64,000 bases of DNA from Candidatus Saccharimonadales bacterium (GCA_035758565.1 DASTXL010000002.1:211118-275117); one strand, 5' to 3'. Numbered from the stretch's first letter, positions 1-51,761 are shown. Notes: generated from the letters alone by a model not told the origin. Numbers and translations: made by a program.

Positions 1-429
1 ATCATAGGCAAAAAGAATGCTGCGTAGCATGCGGACAAAATTGCGGAAGAAAATCAGGAACAGAAATGCCAAACCAAAACCGTACACCGGCACTAACCGG
101 GCCGGGAAAATTTGGCGATTAACGGCGTAACCATAGCTGATAATAAACAGTAGGCCGACAAAGGATCCAACTAGCAAGCGTCCCATTTCGCGGAAACGCT
201 TCTCGTAAATGTTATTGCTATAGAGGCCCAGTAAACCAAATAGTAGAATCCAAAACGGCAACAGCGCCAGAAAAGCTCCTAAATAAGTAGTCCCGCTAAT
301 CGGGTGAGCAACCGGCACCTTGCTTAAGTGGCCGCGAATGAAAAAGGCTGCAGCAAAAGCTGCCAATACGGCCAGATAATCGCCCACCACTAGGCACAAA
401 CTGTAAATTAGCGAGGCGTTGCTTTTCAT
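1..429 (-). CDS. Sugar transferase / polyprenyl glycosylphosphotransferase (WbaP/CpsE-like), N-terminal 143 codons; continues beyond left window edge
   Basis: Own reverse-strand translation from ATG (CAT at 427-429): MKSNASLIYSLCLVVGDYLAVLAAFAAAFFIRGHLSKV...YSNNIYEKRFREMGRLLVG..., open to position 1. The multi-TM N-terminus is typical of EPS/O-antigen priming transferases. Divergent from an O-antigen-ligase-like gene. Not in the ORF track because no stop lies in the window. Confidence 0.5.
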   Translation of the reverse strand, partial: MKSNASLIYSLCLVVGDYLAVLAAFAAAFFIRGHLSKVPVAHPISGTTYLGAFLALLPFWILLFGLLGLYSNNIYEKRFREMGRLLVGSFVGLLFIISYGYAVNRQIFPARLVPVYGFGLAFLFLIFFRNFVRMLRSILFAYD

Positions 430-455: not shown

Positions 456-1805
456 ATGGATATTGATTTTAGAGTGGCTAAACTTGCCCGCTGGTTGAGT
501 TTTCTCGCGGGCCTCATCATTGTTTTGCTGCCATTTCATGAGTTTTTGGCGGTTTGGCTGGGCAGCAATATCGGCCACCTGGATTTAATCCGTATATGGA
601 AAGAAATTCTGTTGGCGGTTATGGCGGCGCCAGTAGGTTGGCTGGCTTGGCGGGCGCCAAGCTTGCGGACTTGGATCCTAAAGTCGTGGATCTTCAGATT
701 GTACGCTGTCTACATACTACTGCATCTAACAGTCGGCTGGTGGTCTTTATCAACGCACCAGGTTAACCGAGTGAGTCTTATTTACGCATTGTTGATCAAC
801 TTGCGTTTTATCGGATTTTTCTTTATTTGCCTGGTGCTGGCTGCCTACAATAGCTGGCTAAAAAATAATTGGATACGCTTGGTCGTTTGGCCATCCGGTA
901 TAGTCATTGTCTTTGCCTTGTTGCAAAGATTAGTTTTGCCTTACGATTTTTTGAAGCATTTTGGCTACGGACCGTCCACAATTCCCGCTTATCAAACGGT
1001 CGACGCCAACCTAAGCTACCAGCGCGTGCAGTCAACTCTGCGTGGGGCTAATCCGCTCGGCGCTTATTTGGCGTTAATTGTTTCGGCCGTAGTAATTAAC
1101 TTAAAGAAAAATAGAAATCTTAAAACTCTCCTGTTGTTGGCGGCACTTTTGGCAATGTTTTATACATATTCTCGTAGTGCGTGGGTGGGTTTGGTTTTGT
1201 CTTTGGCGACGCTTGCCTATTTGGCGATAAAGAAACTTGATCGGCGTCTAATTTATGCCGTTCTGGCCGTGGTCATTGTTGCTGGCGTTGGTTTATTTAT
1301 ATTTAGAAACACTCAGTCGGTACAAGATACTTTGCTGCACACTAGCGCTAGCTCACACAAACAAAGCTCTAATGCGGCGCGCAACTCGGCTATAGAGCAG
1401 GGCGTTAAGGATGTTTACCACCAGCCATTAGGTCGAGGGCCGGGAACCGCTGGGCCGGCAAGCTTTAGAAATAGCGGTCACCCGGCACGTATTGCCGAAG
1501 ATTACTATTTGCAAATCGGCCAGGAGGTCGGGCTGGAAGGGCTAGCTGTCTTTTTGGCCATAAATCTTTTGGTGGCTTGGCAATTGTGGCAAAGACGGGC
1601 CGACAATCTAGCCAAGATTTTGCTGGCCAGCTTGGTGGGAATTAGCTTTATCAACCTGGTTTCGCACGCCTGGGCGGATGATACCCTGAGTTTGCTCTGG
1701 TGGGGACTAGCTGGGATTGCTTGCGCGCCTGTTATACTAAAATCAAAGAATAAGCACTATGGCAAAAACCAACCAAAATCACCGCTTGCTCGTCCAGTTC
1801 GCTGA
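456..1805 (+). CDS. O-antigen ligase / polymerase (Wzy_C-type) family membrane protein
   Basis: 449 aa with about 10-12 hydrophobic helices. YTYSRSAWVGLVLSLA segment followed by a large hydrophilic loop (HTSASSHKQSSNAARN...GRGPGTAGPASF), as in O-antigen ligase domain proteins. Confidence 0.7.
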   Translation: MDIDFRVAKLARWLSFLAGLIIVLLPFHEFLAVWLGSNIGHLDLIRIWKEILLAVMAAPVGWLAWRAPSLRTWILKSWIFRLYAVYILLHLTVGWWSLSTHQVNRVSLIYALLINLRFIGFFFICLVLAAYNSWLKNNWIRLVVWPSGIVIVFALLQRLVLPYDFLKHFGYGPSTIPAYQTVDANLSYQRVQSTLRGANPLGAYLALIVSAVVINLKKNRNLKTLLLLAALLAMFYTYSRSAWVGLVLSLATLAYLAIKKLDRRLIYAVLAVVIVAGVGLFIFRNTQSVQDTLLHTSASSHKQSSNAARNSAIEQGVKDVYHQPLGRGPGTAGPASFRNSGHPARIAEDYYLQIGQEVGLEGLAVFLAINLLVAWQLWQRRADNLAKILLASLVGISFINLVSHAWADDTLSLLWWGLAGIACAPVILKSKNKHYGKNQPKSPLARPVR

Positions 1806-2244
1806 ATACATGGTTAGCGGCGGGGTATATTTTTGGGCTGGTTATGCTGCCTTTGCGGTTTTTTGGTCGGGCCTGCACTGGAATTTATGGTGGTCAACAA
1901 TAGTCAGCAACGTTTTTGGCTGGTCGGTTAACTTCATATTGCAGCGTTACTGGGTATTTAAAAACAAAGGGCTCGACAAACAGCAGAGCCAGGTTACCGG
2001 CCGCTACATTTTTATAACACTGGTAGATTTTGGCATGAATTATCTGATTTTAGCCGGACTAAAGCGCGTTGGCATTAGTCCCTACATTGGCCAATTCTTG
2101 AGTGCTGGCTTCTTTACGGTTTGGAATTATCTTTGGTATCGTTTCTGGGTTTTCCCGGACAAAGCAGACAAAGTTAATTTGAAACTAACGCTGGCTCGCT
2201 TTTTTGCCCACCGAGCCCACAGCCATAGTACGGCACGGAGCTAA
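1759..2244 (+). CDS. GtrA family membrane protein
   Basis: 161 aa, 4 TM. QFAEYMVSGGV, ILQRYWVFKN and WNYLWYRFWVF are GtrA-like hallmarks. Overlaps the upstream gene by 47 nt. Confidence 0.75.
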   Translation: MAKTNQNHRLLVQFAEYMVSGGVYFWAGYAAFAVFWSGLHWNLWWSTIVSNVFGWSVNFILQRYWVFKNKGLDKQQSQVTGRYIFITLVDFGMNYLILAGLKRVGISPYIGQFLSAGFFTVWNYLWYRFWVFPDKADKVNLKLTLARFFAHRAHSHSTARS

Positions 2245-2245
2245 C

Positions 2246-2716
2246 ATGGCTGAGACCATTCGTCCGACCAAAAAACAAAGAGAGCTCCTTGGTTTTATCG
2301 AAGCTTTTATTGCCGAGCATGGCTACAGTCCTAGCTACCGTGAGATTATGAGCGGTCTAAATTACACGTCTGTAGCTACGGTGAGTCTGCATATCAACAA
2401 CTTGATTCGCCGTGGCCATTTGGTTAAGCGTGATCATTCGGCTCGCTCGCTAGAGCTTGTTAAGTCGGCCGAAACTCACGCCAATGTAGTGCCCAAGCAA
2501 CTGAAAGCCAGCGAAGAAAAATGGCTAGTAGATAAAGTTGAGCTGTTTTTTAAAGAGGTCGAGAATTCGCCAAAAATCGTAGAGCGCGAACTAGACCAAC
2601 TTTATGTATTAATAGGCGCCCTAAAGGTCCTTGGCGTCGAAGGAGCGGCGCAAGCATTCATAGCCCGATTAACTGATATCAAAAAGAAACAGACCGAAAA
2701 CCAGTACGTAGCTTAA
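2246..2716 (+). CDS. LexA-type winged-helix DNA-binding domain protein without S24 peptidase domain
   Basis: TKKQRELLGFIEAFIAEHGYSPSYREIMSGLNYTSVATVSLHINNLIRRGHLVKRDHSARSLELV matches the LexA N-terminal DNA-binding domain. The remaining ~85 aa show no Ser/Lys-dyad peptidase motifs. ATG 2246 preferred over track start 2204, which overlaps gtrA. Confidence 0.65.
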   Translation: MAETIRPTKKQRELLGFIEAFIAEHGYSPSYREIMSGLNYTSVATVSLHINNLIRRGHLVKRDHSARSLELVKSAETHANVVPKQLKASEEKWLVDKVELFFKEVENSPKIVERELDQLYVLIGALKVLGVEGAAQAFIARLTDIKKKQTENQYVA

Positions 2717-3571: not shown

Positions 3572-5206
3572 CTAAAATTCAACAGGAGTGTGGGCGCGGA
3601 CGTCCTGGGCTTCTTCTTTGGGTTCGACTGCGTTACTGCCGCGCAAAGGCGCTTCGCGCAAAAACAGAGCAGTGATGAATGCAGCCAGCGCAAACGGGAT
3701 ACCGATCAAGAACATATCGTGGAAAGAGCTGACAAAGGCCTGCAAAACGTCGTGCTGAACCTGCGGAGGCAGGTGGGCTAGCTGAGACGTTCCGCCCGTG
3801 GTGATATTCTGGGTCGAAATCTGGCTGGCCGACGCAGCGGGCAAGTTTTGACTTAGATGATGAGTTAGTCTGGAGATGAGAACTGTACCAAAAATCGCAC
3901 CGCCCAAACTACTGCCGATACTACGAAAGAAGGTAGTACTGGAGGTTGCCGTACCCATTTGCGATCGCTCCACCGAGTTTTGAACGGCCAGCGTGGCAAC
4001 TTGCATAAACGATCCGAGGCCAAGACCGATAACCACCATCCAGGCCGATAAAGCCAGCGCGCTGGTGGTTAGGCTAACGTGACTGAACAGCCACATGCCA
4101 AGAACCAGCATCAAAGTGCCAAAGATCGGAAACGGCTTATAGCGACCGAACTTGGTGATCAAACGGCCAGAAGTTATGGACGCTGTCAGCATTCCAATAA
4201 CTAGCGGAATGGTGTAGAGGCCGGACTTGGTTGGTGAGTAGCCGCGAACAACTTGCTGGTACTGAGGAATGTAGAGAATGGCAGCGAACATGGCCAAACC
4301 GGTAAGCAAAGATAGTATTACCGACACCGAGAAGATATCATTCTTGAACAGATGCATTGGTATTAACGGTTCTTCGGCTCGGCGTTCGTGCCAGGCGAAC
4401 AGTGCTCCAAAAACGATGGTGCTAGCCAGCAAACTGATTATTTGCGGACTGCTCCAAGCGTAAGTTACGCCTGCCCAAACAGTTACTAATATCAAGCTAA
4501 TGACCGATATGCTCATCATGGCAGCGCCAGCGTAGTCAATTTTGTGTTCGCGTCGAATGGCCGGCAAGTGTAAGCGAGAAGCGACGGCCGACAGAGCAAC
4601 TATGCCGATTGGCAAGTTGATATAGAAAATCCAGCGCCATCCGGCGACGCCAAAGATAGAGTGGGCGTCGGCAAAGAAGCCGCCAAGCAGCGGCCCAATG
4701 ACGCTCGCGACACCAAAAACGCCGCCAAAATAACCTTGGTAACGGCCACGTTGCCGGGGCGGAATAACATCGCCAATAATCGCGAGAATCAGGCTCATTA
4801 GTCCGCCGGCGCCGATGCCCTGCAAGGCTCGGAAAGCCACCAGCTGGTCCATGTTTCGGGCTAGGCCACACAGGGCCGAGCCAACCAAAAAGATAATAAT
4901 AGCCGTCTGGAAAATCTTTTTGCGGCCCAAGAGGTCGCCGATCTTACCGTAAATTGGAGTAACGATTGCGCTAGTTAGTAGATAAGAAGTGGCTACCCAA
5001 GAATATTTATTGAGGCCGTTTAAATCGGTGGCTATCTTTGGCAAGGCCGTAGAAACGATAGTCTGGTCAAGAGCAGCTAACAGCATAACTAGCATTAGCG
5101 AGGTCATGACTACCATGATCTCGGAATGGCTGCGCTCGCCGTGCAAATCCTGGGGCGCCGGCGCGGCCGTTGCCGAACTTAGTTTTTTAGTTAATTTTTT
5201 TATCAT
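3572..5206 (-). CDS. MFS transporter, DHA2 (EmrB/QacA-type, 14-TMS) drug:H+ antiporter family
   Basis: 544 aa with about 14 hydrophobic segments. [11 protein letters not shown] (MFS motif A) and [10 protein letters not shown]. Coupled to the upstream marR (ATGA overlap). Confidence 0.85.
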
Positions 5207-5655
5207 TCTTGCCTTTCTTTTTGGTTCTTTAGCCTTGTAGCGTTCGCCACCATTTTTTTATAAATCGCATTAAGCTTGCCGATGTCTTCATTGCTGAGCG
5301 TTCCAATCATAGCTCGCATACCGCTCACAAGATCGTCGCGAAGATTTTTAACAGATTCCTTACCCTTGATGCTCAGACTCAAGTAGACAATGCGACGATC
5401 TTTTTGATCTTGCTCGCGAGCAATGAAGCCATCGTTTTTGAGGGGATCAGCCAGTTGCGAGATGGCGCTCAAACTTACACCCAAGTAGTCGGCAGCTTGC
5501 TTAACGCTAAGTTTTTCATGAAAGAAGAGCAGGTGAAGTAGCTCTAATTGAGCTCTAGACAAAAGTAAAGAACCAGTCTTGCGCTCGGCCAAGGCCAAGT
5601 GCTTTAGACGGTGGGAATTTTCAAGTATCTCTTGAATCTGATCTTCTTTGTCCAT
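5203..5655 (-). CDS. MarR family transcriptional regulator
   Basis: 150 aa. w[53 protein letters not shown]. First gene of the marR-MFS pair. Confidence 0.85.
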
Positions 5656-9773: not shown

Positions 9774-10280
9774 TTAAGGATCGAGTTGAGCGCAAAGGAT
9801 CTGTTTGCCTAAGGCATCGACGCAAGTCGAAACCGTGGTACCGCTTGTTCCAATATTAACGCCGGTTCCGGTGCCTGACGGTGAGCTGCTGGTTACGGGC
9901 GCTTGAGGAGTGGTTGCCTCGCCGCCGCCCAGACCGCCAACCGTGGGCAGGGAGGCATTCAAATCTGATGACGGTAAGTTTGAGCCCAAGCTATTAATGC
10001 TCATTGTGGGCGCAGCCGCAGTAGGTGCCGGCGGGGTAGACGAACTCGAATTACTAGCCGAAGGTTTTGATTCAGACTTGTTTTGGGAATTGAGTGATGT
10101 GCTCAAGTTTTTTGGTTTGGCCTGGATGTAAGGGTTTTGCCCGGCACCATACCTACTGCTAAACGAGAAAATTGCGATCACCAAAAACAACAAGGCGAGC
10201 AAAGGCAGGCTTATGGTGGTGCCGCGGAATAATCGGGCCTTCATTTGTTTATCCACCCCGTGACTAGCGGTATAAATCAT
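9774..10280 (-). CDS. Membrane-anchored Ser/Pro/Thr-rich protein (hypothetical), paralog of 12366-13289
   Basis: RBS AAGGAGG. N-terminus MIYTASHGVDKQ followed by a TM helix, then a low-complexity S/P/T tail. Confidence 0.6.
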   Translation of the reverse strand: MIYTASHGVDKQMKARLFRGTTISLPLLALLFLVIAIFSFSSRYGAGQNPYIQAKPKNLSTSLNSQNKSESKPSASNSSSSTPPAPTAAAPTMSINSLGSNLPSSDLNASLPTVGGLGGGEATTPQAPVTSSSPSGTGTGVNIGTSGTTVSTCVDALGKQILCAQLDP

Positions 10281-10368: not shown

Positions 10369-10452
10369 TTACCAAAAGTCCTTACTGTCTTCGCTTAGAA
10401 TCTTGCGAATTTCGCGGCGCTCGCGTCGGTGCTCAATAAGTTCTCTAATCAT
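10369..10452 (-). CDS. Possible 27-aa micro-ORF
   Basis: GGAGGAGCC then ATG. MIRELIEHRRERREIRKILSEDSKDFW. Supported only by the strong RBS. Confidence 0.3.
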   Translation of the reverse strand: MIRELIEHRRERREIRKILSEDSKDFW

Positions 10453-10531: not shown

Positions 10532-10560
10532 TTGCTAGCGGAGTGAATTAATAACATAAT
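10532..10560 (+). promoter_or_regulatory. Sigma70-type promoter for the Gam-like gene
   Basis: TTGCTA (10532-10537), 17-nt spacer, CATAAT (10555-10560). Confidence 0.5.
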
Positions 10561-10611
10561 TTGTCTACTAGATTCTATCTTCGCACTTCGACTCGATTGG
10601 AGGAATCCCGC

Positions 10612-11160
10612 ATGGCAACCCGCCTGAGAATGGCCAAGACCGTTGGCGAGCTGGACGCCTATGCGCGCCAGCGCGATGAGCAGGTCCGCAAGGAAGCCGA
10701 GAACGACGCGCTCTATGCGCCGTTGATCGCGGAGTTCGAGCGGGCGCTCGAGAAGGTCAAGCGCCGGTACAGCCGGGCCACCGGCCGGATTGAGGCCAAG
10801 ATCAAGCGGCTCGATTCGGCCATGTTGCGCTCAGCCAGGAAGCTGAGAAGGCAGCTGATCCCGGGCACGACCAAGACGGCCAAGCTTCCCTCGGGTGGCG
10901 AGATCAGCTTCCGCAGCCAGCCGGACAAGCCGGTGGTTCAGGACGAGAAGGCCGCGATCGCCTGGCTCGCACAGGCCGGCCCCGAGATCGCCGGCAAGTA
11001 CCTTCGGGTCGAGCCGGAGCTCAACCTCGAGGCACTCGGTCTCGAGGCCAACCGCCAGGAAGCCGAGGCGATCCCCGGCATCAACTTCGAGGAGCAGGAG
11101 GAACGGATCTATTACCTGCCGCCGAGCGGTGGTAAGAAGATCCAGTTGAAGGAGGACTAG
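10612..11160 (+). CDS. gam: Phage Mu Gam-like host-nuclease inhibitor (DNA-end-binding) protein, GC-rich foreign gene
   Basis: GGAGGA lies 7 nt before ATG 10612. ...TTKTAKLPSGGEISFRSQPDKPVV...YLRVEPELNLEAL...AEAIPGINFEEQEERIYYLP aligns by eye with Mu Gam (GGKVKTANLVTGDVSWRVRPPSVSI...FIRTKQEINKEAIL...VAGITVKSGIEDFSIIP). About 65% GC in the stretch I counted. Confidence 0.75.
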   Translation: MATRLRMAKTVGELDAYARQRDEQVRKEAENDALYAPLIAEFERALEKVKRRYSRATGRIEAKIKRLDSAMLRSARKLRRQLIPGTTKTAKLPSGGEISFRSQPDKPVVQDEKAAIAWLAQAGPEIAGKYLRVEPELNLEALGLEANRQEAEAIPGINFEEQEERIYYLPPSGGKKIQLKED

Positions 11161-11162
11161 CG

Positions 11163-11195
11163 GTTCCGGGCGGTGCTCAGCCGCCCGGAACTTTT
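11163..11195 (+). terminator. Rho-independent terminator of the Gam-like gene
   Basis: Perfect 11-bp stem GTTCCGGGCGG / CCGCCCGGAAC, 7-nt loop, TTTT. Confidence 0.8.
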
Positions 11196-11209: not shown

Positions 11210-11243
11210 ATCAAAAGAGCGGCTTTCGAATTAGCCGCTCTTT
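11210..11243 (-). terminator. Rho-independent terminator of the small minus-strand gene
   Basis: 10-bp stem AAAGAGCGGC / GCCGCTCTTT. T-run on the minus strand. Confidence 0.6.
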
Positions 11244-11269: not shown

Positions 11270-11386
11270 TTAAGCCTCAATATCTTCTGCTAGCTTCAGT
11301 TTATCTTCTTTGCTGACGGCGTCTGGACTAATGCCTTGCTTTTCAATCATCTCGTCAACCTTTTTCATTGTGCTCTCGTCTGCCAT
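11270..11386 (-). CDS. Small acidic protein (38 aa), hypothetical
   Basis: GGGAGG lies 6 nt before ATG 11386. MADESTMKKVDEMIEKQGISPDAVSKEDKLKLAEDIEA. The track ORF is extended upstream without an RBS. Confidence 0.45.
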   Translation of the reverse strand: MADESTMKKVDEMIEKQGISPDAVSKEDKLKLAEDIEA

Positions 11387-12365: not shown

Positions 12366-13289
12366 CTATAAGTTTAGTGCGCCACCGACATTAACAGTTT
12401 GGCCGCCAATCTGTGCGCTGGGGGCAGGCAAAGGTAGGCCTGTGTTCGGAGTCGAGGTGGCAGATGTTGTCGGGGTGCTGCCGTTACTGCTTGCTCCTGG
12501 ATTGCTAGCACTAAACGACGGCGGTATTACTTCGACCGATGGCGCAGTAACTTGGACAGTGGGCGTAGAAATTGTGCCTGATCCTACAGCCGCTACCGGC
12601 TGATTCCTGCCGGCGGTAGGGCTGAGATTCACCGACGGAGTGGTTATCTCGGCAACCGGAGTTTTGACGGCTGCTGAAGGTACGCTCGCGATTGGCGGAT
12701 TGGTGCTAGCGGAAACGGGCGGAACGGTCGTCGAACCCACAGGAGTATTTGCGGTGATTGCTGGAGTAGAAACGGTGGTTTCTGGAGGTAAGCTGGTGGT
12801 AACGAGCGGGGTAGAAGGAACTGACGGAAGACTGGTCTTTGGCACCGGTGCGGCAGTGGGCAGAGGACTTAGAATAGGCGCAGCGGGCGGTGGGGTTTTT
12901 GCTAGGTTGGCTGTCGAAGTTGATGAATCCGTCGGGGTACCGGTGCTAGGCTTTTGGGTTGAGAAACTTCCATTAGCCGAACCGCGTTCCGCTGTTTTGG
13001 CGGCCAGGACTGCAGGGCCTTTCTGATCAGAATTTTTATTATTTTTTGACGAAGAGCTGCCGTGGTTACCGGTTCCGGCACTAGATCCCAGCGTTAGGGT
13101 TGCGGCATTCGGAGCCGCTGCCATCGCTACGGCAATGTGCGGGTTACGTCCATTGGCGCTGTTGATACTAAATGTTAAAAGGGCTGCGGCCAGAACCGTG
13201 GCCGACAATACCGGCAAAGTTAGAGAGCCGTCTCGAATCGCTCGAGGACCTATTTGTTTGTCTACTCCTTTTTCTAATGTGTAAACCAT
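12366..13289 (-). CDS. Membrane-anchored Pro/Thr/Ser-rich protein (hypothetical), paralog of 9774-10280
   Basis: RBS AGGGGGA. MVYTLEKGVDKQ followed by a TM helix and a ~250-aa P/T/S/A low-complexity region. Confidence 0.6.
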   Translation of the reverse strand: MVYTLEKGVDKQIGPRAIRDGSLTLPVLSATVLAAALLTFSINSANGRNPHIAVAMAAAPNAATLTLGSSAGTGNHGSSSSKNNKNSDQKGPAVLAAKTAERGSANGSFSTQKPSTGTPTDSSTSTANLAKTPPPAAPILSPLPTAAPVPKTSLPSVPSTPLVTTSLPPETTVSTPAITANTPVGSTTVPPVSASTNPPIASVPSAAVKTPVAEITTPSVNLSPTAGRNQPVAAVGSGTISTPTVQVTAPSVEVIPPSFSASNPGASSNGSTPTTSATSTPNTGLPLPAPSAQIGGQTVNVGGALNL

Positions 13290-18458: not shown

Positions 18459-19181
18459 ATGCTTCTCGAAACTTCGTCCCACGCCGAGCACAAAGAACCC
18501 TTTAATCCCGACAAGATTGTAAGTGTTGGCGAAGTCGTGTTAGAGGAGTCGGTTGAAGCGTCTAAAAACCTCTTAGGAGAACTAGATCCTTTAAAAGCTA
18601 CTGCTGAAGCCAGAATGCAGGATCGGCGCCAGTCGCTAGTTAACGATTTAATCCAACAGGGTTTAATAGATGAGAGCTTCAAAAGTAGACTTGAAGCTTT
18701 CAATATAACTGCGAGCAGGGATCGTAAAAAATGTGTAGACTCGTTAGAACATATATTGCTTGGCGATAGACATGGTGGATGTCATCACCTTCGAACAATT
18801 CTAGCCTTAGATGAATCAAGGGGCGCTCGACCCCCAACCTTCTACAGAGGAGTTGGCTCACCTGTTGGGGGCAATAAAGCAAAAAAATTAAGAAAAAAAC
18901 AGACTGTACAACCAAATGGGGCGTATTGGGCATTTCATATTGATATAAATGGGCGTGAAAAAAAGCGGGGCTCAGCCATGTTCCCCGATAACTGGTCGAC
19001 CAAAAAAGTACTCAATTCAATTCTAGAAGTATCAAAAGCAGAGCCAACAAATGATGTTCTAAATGAATCAGTTTGGAAGCACCAAGCAGCAGTCGATGGA
19101 GTGTTGGTTATTGTCAAAACGCGTAAAGCGAACGGAAAGATCATCGCAGCATTCCCCGATCCGTTTTGGAGGCCAAAGTGA
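18459..19181 (+). CDS. EndoU-like RNase toxin domain protein
   Basis: The C-terminal ~140 aa carry HILLGDRHGGCHHL ... GSAMFPDNWSTKKVLNSILEVSKA ... NGKIIAAFP, the layout of bacterial EndoU nuclease toxin domains. No signal peptide. Confidence 0.65.
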   Translation: MLLETSSHAEHKEPFNPDKIVSVGEVVLEESVEASKNLLGELDPLKATAEARMQDRRQSLVNDLIQQGLIDESFKSRLEAFNITASRDRKKCVDSLEHILLGDRHGGCHHLRTILALDESRGARPPTFYRGVGSPVGGNKAKKLRKKQTVQPNGAYWAFHIDINGREKKRGSAMFPDNWSTKKVLNSILEVSKAEPTNDVLNESVWKHQAAVDGVLVIVKTRKANGKIIAAFPDPFWRPK

Positions 19182-20581
19182 GCGATTACGAAAGAACTGC
19201 TGCTCCAGACCCAGAGCTAGAAGAGGGTCTAAGAATTGCAGAAGAAATAATACAAGAAAATGTAGGCCAAATTTACCATAACGATCCATCTAAGTTAGCT
19301 GGCGAACTTGATCAAGTAATCAGAGGTGAGCACGGCGAAGGATTCATTATCGAGGATGAAGGCGAGCTAAGATCTTTAAGTGTGGGCAAGGACCAGACGA
19401 CAATAAGGGACGAGACCGGCCCCGAAACTCAATTTTATAATGTTCCAAGCGTTTCCCTCTCTAGCCTTGTGCATCAGATTACGCATGATTCACAGGAAAG
19501 TCGTAAGCCTGGCTTTAACGAGCTCCAAGCAGTGTCTGAAAACGAAAAACCGCTTGAGGCTGTCCGAGTAGATAATAGAGTGACGTGGGTTAATCCAGAC
19601 TTTAACCACCCCTTCAATCTTCATGTAGATGAACCAACACCACTAGGCGTAATGGTTAAACCGCACATTTCGGATTTGGAAAAGGACACTACTGTGCTGG
19701 GACTTTTTAATCACAGACGTAGTGTCTTATTGGAAAGGGTTCAATTTACGGATAAGCAAGGAGTGGTCTACAGAGACATTGACTCGAAAGGCTCTGGCTT
19801 TGTGCTGCCTGTCGATGGGGTGTTGAAGGGCCATGGAACAAACACATGGGAAGTCACCCGCGGCAGAGGTCTATTAAATTTAGATAAAGCCGAAAGAGAT
19901 TTACAAAATGGAGAGGCTTTCTACAAGGCTGGCATAAGAACCGTAAGAACGCTAGCAATTGTTGAGTTAAATGAACTACTTGATGACGAAGGAAATAAAA
20001 TTACTCCTAATGAAGCAAAATCACGAGGTTTAATAGATGACCGATTTTCTCCTGTGCTTGAACTGAGGGCGTTCGGTACAAGAGCCCGGATGAGAGACCT
20101 TCTGTTTGACTCAGACGGTGAAGGGCTAATTAAGGATGCGATATCACTAGTAGCCGCAGAAATTGGGGTTGAGCCCGATGAATTTAGCCCCGAAGACTAC
20201 CTAATCTGGTTTGCCAAAACGCTTGGGGAGAATATGAGAAAGATACATGAGTTAGGCTATGTGCATGGGTCTTTGCACGAAGGCAATGTTACCCTGGACT
20301 GCAGATTGGTTGATTTCGATGGTGTGAGAAGTTTATCAGGTGGTGATGATGACACAAAAGCTAAATACTTTTATGCTGAATCAAAAGCATCGCACATAGT
20401 TTGGGATGCTCTCAGAGAATCAGTTGCAACAGCCTTTCCAAATATAGGTAGTTCATATGCTAAGACTGGAGTCAAAGACGAATTGCACGAGAGCATTGAG
20501 AACGCTTTCGAGCAAGGTTATGGTGGGGGGAGAGACCAGTTATTAGATAGGTACATATACGGCGAAGATTGGAACGACTAA
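19178..20581 (+). CDS. Kinase-fold (Kdo/WaaP/APH-like) protein with Ser replacing the catalytic Asp; partner of the EndoU gene
   Basis: GGAGG lies 5 nt before GTG 19178, which overlaps the upstream stop (GTGA). YRDIDSKGSGF ... IHELGYVHGSLHEGNVTLDCRLVDFDG, compared with the HGDLHxxN...DF motif. The CDS is confident; the function is tentative. Confidence 0.55.
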   Translation: MSDYERTAAPDPELEEGLRIAEEIIQENVGQIYHNDPSKLAGELDQVIRGEHGEGFIIEDEGELRSLSVGKDQTTIRDETGPETQFYNVPSVSLSSLVHQITHDSQESRKPGFNELQAVSENEKPLEAVRVDNRVTWVNPDFNHPFNLHVDEPTPLGVMVKPHISDLEKDTTVLGLFNHRRSVLLERVQFTDKQGVVYRDIDSKGSGFVLPVDGVLKGHGTNTWEVTRGRGLLNLDKAERDLQNGEAFYKAGIRTVRTLAIVELNELLDDEGNKITPNEAKSRGLIDDRFSPVLELRAFGTRARMRDLLFDSDGEGLIKDAISLVAAEIGVEPDEFSPEDYLIWFAKTLGENMRKIHELGYVHGSLHEGNVTLDCRLVDFDGVRSLSGGDDDTKAKYFYAESKASHIVWDALRESVATAFPNIGSSYAKTGVKDELHESIENAFEQGYGGGRDQLLDRYIYGEDWND

Positions 20582-20802: not shown

Positions 20803-20877
20803 TGGCTCCGGGGACTGGATTCGAACCAGCGACCTAGTGGTTAACAGCCACCCGCTCTACCGCTGAGCTACCCCGGA
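20803..20877 (-). tRNA. tRNA-Asn (anticodon GTT), CCA encoded
   Basis: Reverse complement TCCGGGGTAGCTCAGCGGTAGAGCGGGTGGCTGTTAACCACTAGGTCGCTGGTTCGAATCCAGTCCCCGGAGCCA folds as a 75-nt cloverleaf. Anticodon loop is CTGTTAA. Confidence 0.92.
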
Positions 20878-51119: not shown

Positions 51120-51359
51120 TACGCAACCTTTCAGGCCGCTAAAGCACGCCCGGACCCACTATCCGAACAGGAGCTGTTTATAAGCCAGATGTTTGAGAAA
51201 GTAAATTATTACTTGACTTGTTAAGTATTCTTTAGGCATGAAGTAAGCGCCATGATAGGTGGCGCCGCGGCCGCATAAAATGCAGGCGCGCCCATGGCGC
51301 TGTGGCGGAAGACCAAGATTTGGTCTCCCGCCAGATTCTTCGTGAGGAGTCGTTGGCGA

Positions 51360-51683
51360 TCAGTCGTCTGGCAGGCTACGTCGTCTCGGCCGAGGCACGA
51401 AGAAGTGCAACATCACACGCTGCTTGTCGTTGGCATGAAGAGCCGTTGCGACGAGCAAGCCGTCCTTGTTCAGCTCGGGGTCTTCGCGCCAGCGAAACGA
51501 ACCGTCTCCCGGCGAGCTGGCGATGATCGCCTCTCTGAACGCCTCTCTTGAGCACGCGTTCTTGGTCGACCTCAGCACCATCACCGTGTCAGCCTTGCCG
51601 TCCGATGACGGTCCCTGACCGATGAGCGTGAAGACACCGCCCTCGCGAACGCTGTGCTCGAGAGTTTCTACCAAGTCCAACAC
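51360..51683 (-). CDS. Orphan GC-rich ORF (107 aa, GTG start), hypothetical
   Basis: GGAGG lies 4 nt before GTG 51683. By my hand count about three quarters of codons end in G/C, versus about two thirds for the overlapping plus-strand ORF, whose product is Arg/Trp/Ser-rich and looks antisense. Confidence 0.5.
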   Translation of the reverse strand: MLDLVETLEHSVREGGVFTLIGQGPSSDGKADTVMVLRSTKNACSREAFREAIIASSPGDGSFRWREDPELNKDGLLVATALHANDKQRVMLHFFVPRPRRRSLPDD

Positions 51684-51761
51684 AGAACCTCCGCTTGAAG
51701 ATGAACTAACCTCGACCGAAGCCGAAGATTAGTTCGGTTGACGAATCGAGGTGATATACTT

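Follow-up and report, generated by a model that had tools for sequence, protein, structure and literature searches.

A solitary Mu Gam-family gene with a GC-rich coding sequence and a conserved native leader in a Saccharimonadales genome

We identified a solitary gene of the phage Mu Gam family in a 64,000-nucleotide stretch of a Candidatus Saccharimonadales genome (GCA_035758565.1, DASTXL010000002.1:211118-275117; hereafter the window, with positions counted from its first letter). The gene is a divergent member of a known family, and what is unusual about it is a stationary GC anomaly which is confined to one gene and stands behind a conserved native leader. The reading we favour, with moderate confidence, is that of a long-resident and self-contained DNA-end-protection gene that has retained a GC-rich coding composition. 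The unit is old in the lineage of the window, as it has its leader and its site in common with a relative in which the synonymous sites are saturated. The original prediction, made from the sequence of the window alone, had proposed a recent import of a single gene, and this proposal was not upheld.

Composition, family and integrity of the Gam gene

The open reading frame (ORF; 10612..11160, plus strand, with ATG at 10612 and stop codon TAG at 11158..11160) is 549 bp long and encodes a protein of 182 amino acids (aa). Its GC content is 65.0% (0.650, 0.426, and 0.874 at the first, second, and third codon positions, GC1, GC2, and GC3, respectively) compared to 48.1% for the whole window, which agrees with the roughly 65% over a background of 45-50% that had been predicted. 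It is the 549-bp stretch with the highest GC content in the 64 kb (z ~5.3-5.8; maximum elsewhere 0.585), and the GC3 of the 63 other long ORFs in the window is 0.51 (SD 0.056). A two-change-point likelihood fit placed the GC-rich segment at 10607..11188, which corresponds to the ORF and the 11-bp G+C stem that follows it. The left change point is located 5 nt 5' of the ATG and the right one inside the 3' arm of the hairpin, in accordance with the predicted switches of composition near the start codon and after the stem. The 30 nt preceding the ATG are already about 60% GC (counted by hand), and the switch therefore takes place about 5-30 nt from the start codon. The codon usage is extreme and foreign, with AAG used in 15/15, GAG in 19/22, CAG in 9/9, ATC in 10/11, and GCT in 0/24 cases. 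The ORF therefore combines the atypical composition and codon usage with the sharp boundaries that are sought in islets of horizontal gene transfer (HGT). The observation of a single GC-rich ORF with its own promoter-like site and G+C stem is confirmed.

The assignment to the Mu Gam family held as well. The protein matched the Pfam profile PF07352 (Phage_Mu_Gam) with 47.9 bits (cutoff 28.3), covering profile positions 6-147 of 149, and PHROG 491 ('Mu Gam-like end protection') with an E value of 9e-16. The length of 182 aa fits the family size of ~170-190 aa. The family motifs KTAKLPSGGEISFRSQP, RVEPELN, and IPG are present in the alignment with 26 homologues, as is the pattern KT..LP.G..[FW]R..P. 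Searches with the protein against NCBIfam and PADLOC gave nothing meaningful, the Ku profile of Pfam did not match it, no related solved structure was found in PDB by sequence, and a profile search built from 27 diverse Gams gave no additions among the matches listed. An AlphaFold2 model (pLDDT 91.8) predicts an N-terminal helix of 67 residues and, after it, a small mixed domain. Compared with an orthologue that is 84% identical at the protein level (L002, see below), dN/dS is 0.24 at a dS of 0.43, and the gene is therefore under purifying selection. On the basis of these matches we assign the gene to the Mu Gam (Ku-like) family, as a solitary chromosomal copy in a Saccharimonadales genome from soil.

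Phage Mu Gam binds double-strand ends and blocks exonucleases (PMC3809393; PMC1378119), and Gam is regarded as a relative of Ku (PMC1378119). By homology, the product of the window gene would probably be a dimer which caps the ends of double-stranded DNA (dsDNA) and shields them from exonucleases, and it may work on its own to protect the ends of the cell's DNA. In the early region of a Mu-like prophage, neighbours such as transposase A/B, Mor, GemA, and Gp27 genes are expected; a true Mu-like context of this type surrounds the Gam gene of L039, which served as a control. No match to a phage-family Pfam profile was found among the window genes scanned (most long ORFs of the 64 kb), in line with the predicted solitary position. 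A prophage remnant was ruled out on this ground. An anti-phage defence context was also ruled out, with no PADLOC match for Gam or its neighbours of unknown family.

The jump in composition raises the question whether a fragment of a high-GC genome was joined into a Saccharimonadales contig by misassembly or contamination, and apart from the jump itself nothing further speaks for it. In NCBI the identical protein, encoded on a contig of 355,811 bp, bears the name 'host-nuclease inhibitor Gam family protein [Candidatus Saccharimonadales bacterium]', which supports the predicted Saccharibacteria-type host. An independent Logan assembly of SRR25158471 (L001, a 34-kb contig) has the same gene in the same context and with the same junctions as the metagenome-assembled genome (MAG) in NCBI. 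The junctions also match in a different sample (L002, SRR31761992) at 85% nucleotide identity, and the same architecture was found in L003/L004, which come from two further archives. In addition, the boundaries fall at the start codon and at the hairpin. Because the copy from the second sample keeps the AT-rich leader, the GC-rich ORF, the hairpin, and the downstream small ORF s38, a chimera is excluded, and we give it practically no probability.

A unit shared with distant relatives

A sigma-70-type promoter is predicted at 10532..10560 (plus strand), with TTGCTA at 10532..10537 and CATAAT at 10555..10560 separated by 17 nt. A consensus scan recovered this predicted site with 9/12 consensus matches. 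It is followed by an AT-rich leader (5' untranslated region) of ~50 nt (10561..10611, plus strand), which contains a CTAG element (TCTACTAGATT, 10564..10574) and the ribosome-binding site (RBS) GGAGGA (10599..10604), 7 nt 5' of the ATG. Directly 3' of the stop codon is a G+C-rich hairpin (11163..11195, plus strand) with an 11-bp core stem of Watson-Crick pairs (11163..11173 / 11181..11191) and a 7-nt loop, followed by TTTT. The hairpin folds with -27.9 kcal/mol. Of the GC-only terminator that had been proposed, the 11-bp G+C stem is real (z -5.1), but the terminator scan did not call it because only four T residues follow the stem. The T tail is missing in L002 and in two further relatives (L003 and L032). 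The scan did call a canonical bidirectional terminator of native composition at 11214..11243 (AAAGAGCGGCT / AGCCGCTCTTT), which folds on both strands and is shared with the convergent small gene s38. In L002 its stem shows one compensatory change, from GAGCGGCT/AGCCGCTC to GAGTGGCT/AGCCACTC. The stem sequence of the G+C hairpin is the same in the window and in L002 despite an overall divergence of 15%, and the hairpin is therefore constrained. An Rfam scan of the window found only a tRNA and no known RNA element at the Gam locus. We propose that these elements form a one-gene unit which would consist of the sigma-70-type promoter, the AT-rich CTAG leader with its strong RBS, the 182-codon ORF, the G+C hairpin, and the bidirectional terminator of the neighbour.

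An alignment of the leaders showed that the CTAG element is conserved in front of Gam. The pattern [CT]ATAAT.{4,12}CTAG[AT][ATG] matched every available Gam leader; elsewhere in 2 x 521 kb it matched at no more than 3 places. TCTACTAGAWT occurs exactly once in the window. A generic promoter or leader motif was therefore ruled out; the CTAG leader is specific to Gam loci. A match outside Gam loci, at ~330..418 (minus strand) of L009 (CATAATCTATACCTAGAT), is followed by G+C-rich, structured-looking sequence with no obvious ORF and may be an RNA gene. A protein of 156 aa with a LexA DNA-binding domain, in which no peptidase S24 domain was detected (window 2246..2716, plus strand; L003 6119..6601), adjoins an MFS transporter across Saccharimonadales at 64-75% identity and is a candidate regulator of the CTAG leader.

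The comparison comprised five Gam-carrying lineages, all metagenomic: the window, L002, L003/L004, L032/L033, and L034. The Gam protein of L002 shows 84% identity (85% at the nucleotide level; GC3 0.880), and L002 has the same leader, hairpin stem, second terminator, and s38, while synteny with the window breaks off further downstream. L003, a 60-kb JGI contig that is also present in ENA, encodes a Gam with ~36-37% identity to that of the window and shares the surrounding region with it (Wzy, LexA-like, MFS, HisPhos, OmdA, and Crp). Its Gam gene is preceded by s29, a homologue of the small ORF s27 upstream of Gam in the window, by the promoter TTGCTT-17-TATAAT, and by a CTAG leader (TTAGTCTACTAGAAT), and it is followed by a 16-bp perfect G+C hairpin of unrelated sequence and an AT-rich bidirectional terminator. 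The distance from s27 or s29 to the promoter side is 80 bp in the window and 87 bp in L003 (counted by hand). The Gam gene of L003 is the GC maximum of that locus, with 62.0% GC and a GC3 of 0.775 over a background of 46.3%. In L032/L033 the Gam protein is 34-35% identical to that of the window (68.6% GC, GC3 0.917; flanks GC3 0.40-0.62), and homologues of s38 and of the surface-protein genes nearby link these contigs to Saccharimonadales. In L034 the identity is ~25% over the full length and 40-42% over a 90-residue core (63.6% GC, GC3 0.738; flanks GC3 0.38-0.51), and the link to Saccharimonadales is a Dus gene that shares 59% identity with a gene of a named Saccharimonadales genome.

The layout TTGCwn-16/17-yATAAT is found 5' of Gam in L003, L032, and L034 as well, and the Gam genes of L032 and L034 are preceded by TTGCAG or TTGCAT, 16-17 nt, TATAAT, and a CTAG leader. 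The GC islands of L032 and L034 start at most 15 nt from the start codon and end at a G+C hairpin. In all five lineages every Gam behind a CTAG leader is a GC island bounded by ORF and hairpin. Across 511 kb of related sequence, other GC islands of comparable size are rare. The hairpins of L003, L032, and L034 are located at the matching place with unrelated sequences. As controls, three Gam genes from other contexts were included, none of which is an island or has a CTAG leader: that of the Mu-like prophage L039, that of a uniformly GC-rich contig (L035), and that of an unrelated contig of 48% GC, which has native composition (L038).

The age of the anomaly was assessed at four-fold sites within identical amino acids. 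In the flanking genes, the identity at these sites between the window and L003 is 0.28-0.32, where 0.25-0.27 is expected, and in Gam it is 0.35 where 0.38 is expected from composition. The Gam sites compared are still 86% (window) and 76% (L003) G+C. Since the identity is not above the composition expectation, the synonymous sites have fully turned over and the composition has remained unchanged. A GC3 of 0.74-0.92, compared to ~0.5 in the surroundings, has been kept across saturated divergence and is therefore a retained state rather than a fresh foreign signature. According to the amelioration model of Lawrence and Ochman, imported genes reportedly drift neutrally towards the composition of the host, and the GC anomaly of Gam should therefore have been erased.

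These results bear directly on a recent import from a high-GC donor that was newly wired to a native promoter. The atypical composition, the sharp boundaries, the foreign codon usage, and a relative with no Gam at the equivalent site (L006) would fit such an event. It is contradicted by the orthologue with 84% identity (dS 0.43) and by the syntenic orthologue with 37% identity, both with the same anomaly and the same leader, by the saturation of synonymous sites, and by a donor search that found none. Recency is unsupported because distant relatives carry the same, equally GC-rich unit. Equally GC-rich orthologues at the same locus in all relatives had been named beforehand as an observation that would speak against recent import; they were found wherever the gene occurs, and several relatives do not have the gene. 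The anomaly is therefore not confined to the recipient, and we consider recent import improbable.

Origin and persistence of the GC-rich composition

The distribution of the gene is patchy. No Gam was found within 10 kb at 27 loci fetched via the conserved MFS neighbour, which are nearly all from species representatives of Saccharimonadales/Saccharibacteria. In L006, homologues of s27 and s38 are present with a gene for a 137-aa acidic membrane protein between them, and in L007 and L009 the corresponding places are occupied by other genes. The patchy distribution therefore points to multiple losses or to movement, and Gam was lost from, or never present in, several other relatives. L006 also has a 549-aa resolvase-like ORF (3652..5301), read by eye as a large serine recombinase, ~1 kb from its s38 homologue, which suggests an integrated element near the variable site. 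Three GTDB records titled 'uncultured actinobacterium' (L025), 'Streptomyces griseus' (L026), and 'Candidatus Dormiibacterota' (L013) contain an MFS gene that is 47-64% identical to the Saccharimonadales one, and the contig titled 'Streptomyces griseus', at 46-47% GC, looks misbinned or mislabelled.

A high-GC actinobacterial host or a phage of such a host had been suggested as the donor, and neither was found. An exhaustive search of 1.84 billion representative proteins returned the L003 orthologue and then nothing above 36% identity, and a word-indexed search of 5.8 billion clusters returned three Gam-subfamily clusters in all. A tblastn search of 50,697 phage records gave no match to Gam, the viral contigs of IMG/VR contained no Gam relative, the representative genomes of GTDB contained nothing when searched with Gam patterns, and a search of metagenome contigs only found the L003 contig again. 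Among homologues in GC-rich contexts the closest shows 35% identity, and no donor clade closer than the relatives of the recipient was identified. Few members of the family have been sampled, most of them as singleton clusters, and the negative result therefore weakens, but does not exclude, an origin from the host or a host phage. An ultimately foreign origin from high-GC DNA is plausible; it would be old, and present data do not lead back to Actinobacteria or their phages.

The sharing of leader and site across lineages could also arise if promoter and leader formed a native slot into which ORF and hairpin were imported separately in each lineage from different high-GC donors, for example actinobacterial hosts or phages whose DNA is taken up by competent epibionts, so that each copy would be relatively young. 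In 4/4 lineages tested the GC-rich segment coincides exactly with the ORF and its hairpin, the hairpins are unrelated, and the T-less G+C stems resemble terminators of high-GC organisms. The Gam proteins are 37% identical between the window and L003 where their neighbours are 56-75% identical, the Gams of L034 and L032 belong to different subgroups despite a similar leader, and with a family so sparsely sampled an unsampled donor would not be surprising. However, no known mechanism swaps an ORF precisely between its start codon and a downstream terminator, and the locus shows neither attC-like boxes nor terminal or direct repeats, nor is a recombinase encoded within 10 kb. For none of the lineages did the searches return a donor with more than 36% identity, the Gams in truly GC-rich contexts (L035, L039) have unrelated upstream regions, and the Gams of the window, L003, and L032 are mutual best matches, which fits common descent. 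We regard such repeated replacement as possible, and as clearly less probable than the retention we favour.

Alternatively, leader, ORF, and hairpin could move together among Saccharimonadales as a moron-like cassette, with a GC-rich extrachromosomal reservoir, a phage or plasmid of these bacteria, as its source. The unit is self-contained with its own promoter and hairpin, it is patchily distributed, and its neighbourhoods vary, as it is found after Dus in L034, beside an NTPase gene in L032, and beside s27 or s29 in the window and L003. On the other hand, no flanking repeats, no integrase or other recombinase among the neighbours, no phage genes, and no adjacent tRNA were found at the window locus; none of the viral contigs searched carries the unit; and the leader is host-like in composition. 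In the window and in L003 the unit is found at exactly the same site, with matching spacing to s27/s29. Moreover, phages are, to our knowledge, rarely 15-20 points more GC-rich than their hosts. Movement of this kind is unlikely, and it is, like recent import and an assembly chimera, less likely than retention or repeated replacement.

Several processes that could make a single gene GC-rich were examined. Codon bias of highly expressed genes was ruled out, as GC3 is 0.546 for DnaK, 0.569 for GrpE, and 0.555 for LepA, and lies in the range 0.55-0.57 when AspRS is included. An overlapping or antisense gene was ruled out by comparing the longest open runs of the five other frames with synonymous permutations, which gave no conserved second frame; unusually long open runs were seen in the +3 frame of L002 and L034, but this frame is closed in L003 (44 codons). 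Biased gene conversion appears unlikely, since it would be expected to blur into the leader and the neighbours, yet the boundaries are sharp. In addition, the predicted fold of the Gam mRNA was compared with synonymous-codon permutations. All five copies were more stable than the permutations (z -1.95, -4.39, -1.61, -2.67, and -2.08), and ten native control genes gave a mean z of -0.83 (SD 1.09) in the same test. These values hint weakly at selection on the structure of the Gam mRNA.

Under the favoured reading of long residence with a retained composition, the gene was probably foreign once, and a gene-specific constraint on codons or mRNA would now hold it GC-rich. The following points weigh against this reading. 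All inference rests on five metagenomic lineages, of which L034 is tied to Saccharimonadales by a single gene with 59% identity, and the Gam of L034 is nearer to mainstream Gams than to the window subfamily, yet its leader resembles that of L032. The hairpins of the different lineages are unrelated in sequence, and Gam has diverged far more than its neighbours; separate swapping-in of ORF and hairpin would give the same picture. The MFS and LexA-like tree is star-like, with the window and L003 not exclusive sisters, and L006, L007, and L009 have no Gam near the conserved MFS gene. A hand-estimated rank test on the fold z scores gives p of roughly 0.03, or ~0.08 when the non-independent L002 is left out, and we know of no force that holds one gene ~35 points above its genome in GC3. 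As to function, DNA-end binding by the window protein is assigned by analogy with Mu Gam, and fold searches of PDB with the predicted model gave no match to Ku.

A more specific proposal, to which we attach little weight, is that the GC-rich 'dialect' of Gam is a selected adaptation in an epibiont of high-GC hosts. Translation or mRNA stability might be gated by G/C-ending codons, as with transcripts that depend on tRNA wobble modification. In another form, expression would be tied to the host, and the protein would be made only under a high supply of host-derived, G/C-rich nucleotides, during the consumption of host DNA, when nucleases and free DNA ends are abundant; alternatively, Gam might function inside the actinobacterial host or together with it. 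The stationary composition over saturated divergence, its confinement to ORF and hairpin, and the slight excess of mRNA structure are compatible with this proposal.

Genomic context, known systems and significance

The nearest neighbour upstream is s27 (10369..10452, minus strand; 27 aa, MIRELIEHRRERREIRKILSEDSKDFW), which is divergent from Gam and encodes a protein ending in LSEDSKDFW. Its homologues are located directly 5' of Gam in L003 (9744..9833) and at the site with no Gam in L006 (6918..7058). We take s27 as native to the region and as a marker of the orthologous site. Downstream, the native neighbour s38 (11270..11386, minus strand; 38 aa, MADESTMKKVDEMIEKQGISPDAVSKEDKLKLAEDIEA) is convergent with Gam and encodes an acidic protein beginning with MADESTMKKVDEMIEKQGISPD. 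It was called in L001 and L002 and has homologues in L006 (6235..6354) and L032 (469..579). Both small ORFs have good ribosome-binding sites and homologues in other Saccharimonadales loci, including the Gam-less L006. The wider neighbourhood is unremarkable: further 5' of Gam the window contains genes for Wzy, GtrA, the protein with a LexA DNA-binding domain, MFS transporters, MarR, PAP2, and NUDIX proteins, and 3' of Gam genes for a histidine phosphatase, AHSA1, ArsR, OmdA, and Crp. The paralogy of the two flanking surface-protein genes, proposed by eye, is supported by 40% identity over the first 52 residues (E 5e-13). These genes (9774..10280 and 12366..13289, both minus strand) belong to a Ser/Thr/Pro-rich, membrane-anchored family with the N-terminus M-x-Y-x3-G-[VI]-[DE], which has several paralogues per genome and further members in L006 (7838..8350) and L032 (3..356), none with a Pfam match.

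The only tRNA of the window (20803..20877) lies 10 kb from Gam. A second GC-rich islet is found at 51240..51700, where an ORF of 107 aa (51360..51683, minus strand; 60.8% GC, GC3 0.75) is located between an ABC-2 permease gene and MurJ. This ORF was predicted in the Logan assembly as well and matched neither Pfam nor PADLOC. G+C palindromes are located 3' of its stop codon, and its leader contains a hairpin. L034 contains another GC-rich gene as well (1537..2136, minus strand; 199 aa, 64% GC, GC3 0.93, no Pfam match), and small GC-rich islands of one gene may recur in Saccharimonadales-type genomes. A bacterial EndoU nuclease-domain protein (18459..19181, plus strand) and the product of an overlapping ORF with no family match (19166..20581, plus strand; 471 aa) may be a toxin-type pair.

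The window gene resembles phage Mu Gam and its families PF07352 and PHROG 491 in scoring above the curated cutoff, in length, in conserved motifs, and, as far as the model predicts, in a long N-terminal helix with a small mixed domain. It differs in its position outside a Mu-like prophage, with no transposase, Mor, or GemA among the scanned genes of the 64 kb, in belonging to a rare and divergent subfamily (3 clusters in 5.8 billion, nearest outsider at most 36% identical), and in being GC-rich in a genome of 48% GC with its own promoter and leader. Like bacterial Ku of the Ku-LigD system, it would by analogy be a chromosomal stand-alone DNA-end-binding protein which could protect breaks in non-growing cells; on the other hand, the Pfam and fold searches gave no Ku match, and no ligase D family was found among the neighbours scanned within ~10 kb. 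End joining by Gam is pure conjecture. The autonomous promoter-ORF-terminator arrangement, the deviant composition, and the patchy distribution are shared with phage morons and HGT islets, whereas the location outside a prophage, the host-like promoter and leader that are conserved across lineages, and an anomaly shared by orthologues at saturated synonymous divergence are not. Integron cassettes likewise combine a resident promoter with an ORF of foreign composition and a hairpin that differs between copies. However, the Gam hairpins are perfect G+C stems with no RYYYAAC/GTTRRRY boxes (by eye), no integrase is encoded within 10 kb (L001 gene list), and there is a single ORF and no array. An integron cassette or an element resembling a miniature inverted-repeat transposable element (MITE) was ruled out, since neither attC boxes nor inverted or direct repeats at the flanks nor a recombinase were found.

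Atypical GC content is routinely read as recent horizontal transfer. For Gam this inference of recency fails, because the anomaly persists in orthologues whose synonymous sites have been randomised. If the composition is actively maintained, the gene would be an unusually clean natural case of selection on gene-specific codon or mRNA composition in an epibiont with a reduced genome. If ORF and hairpin were instead precisely replaced again and again, this would imply an unknown route of cassette exchange between Saccharibacteria and high-GC hosts. For the family, a rare and domesticated subfamily of Gam has been identified that has a conserved promoter and leader of its own. Its product is a candidate for the stand-alone protection of DNA ends in a lineage whose way of life is the uptake of foreign DNA.

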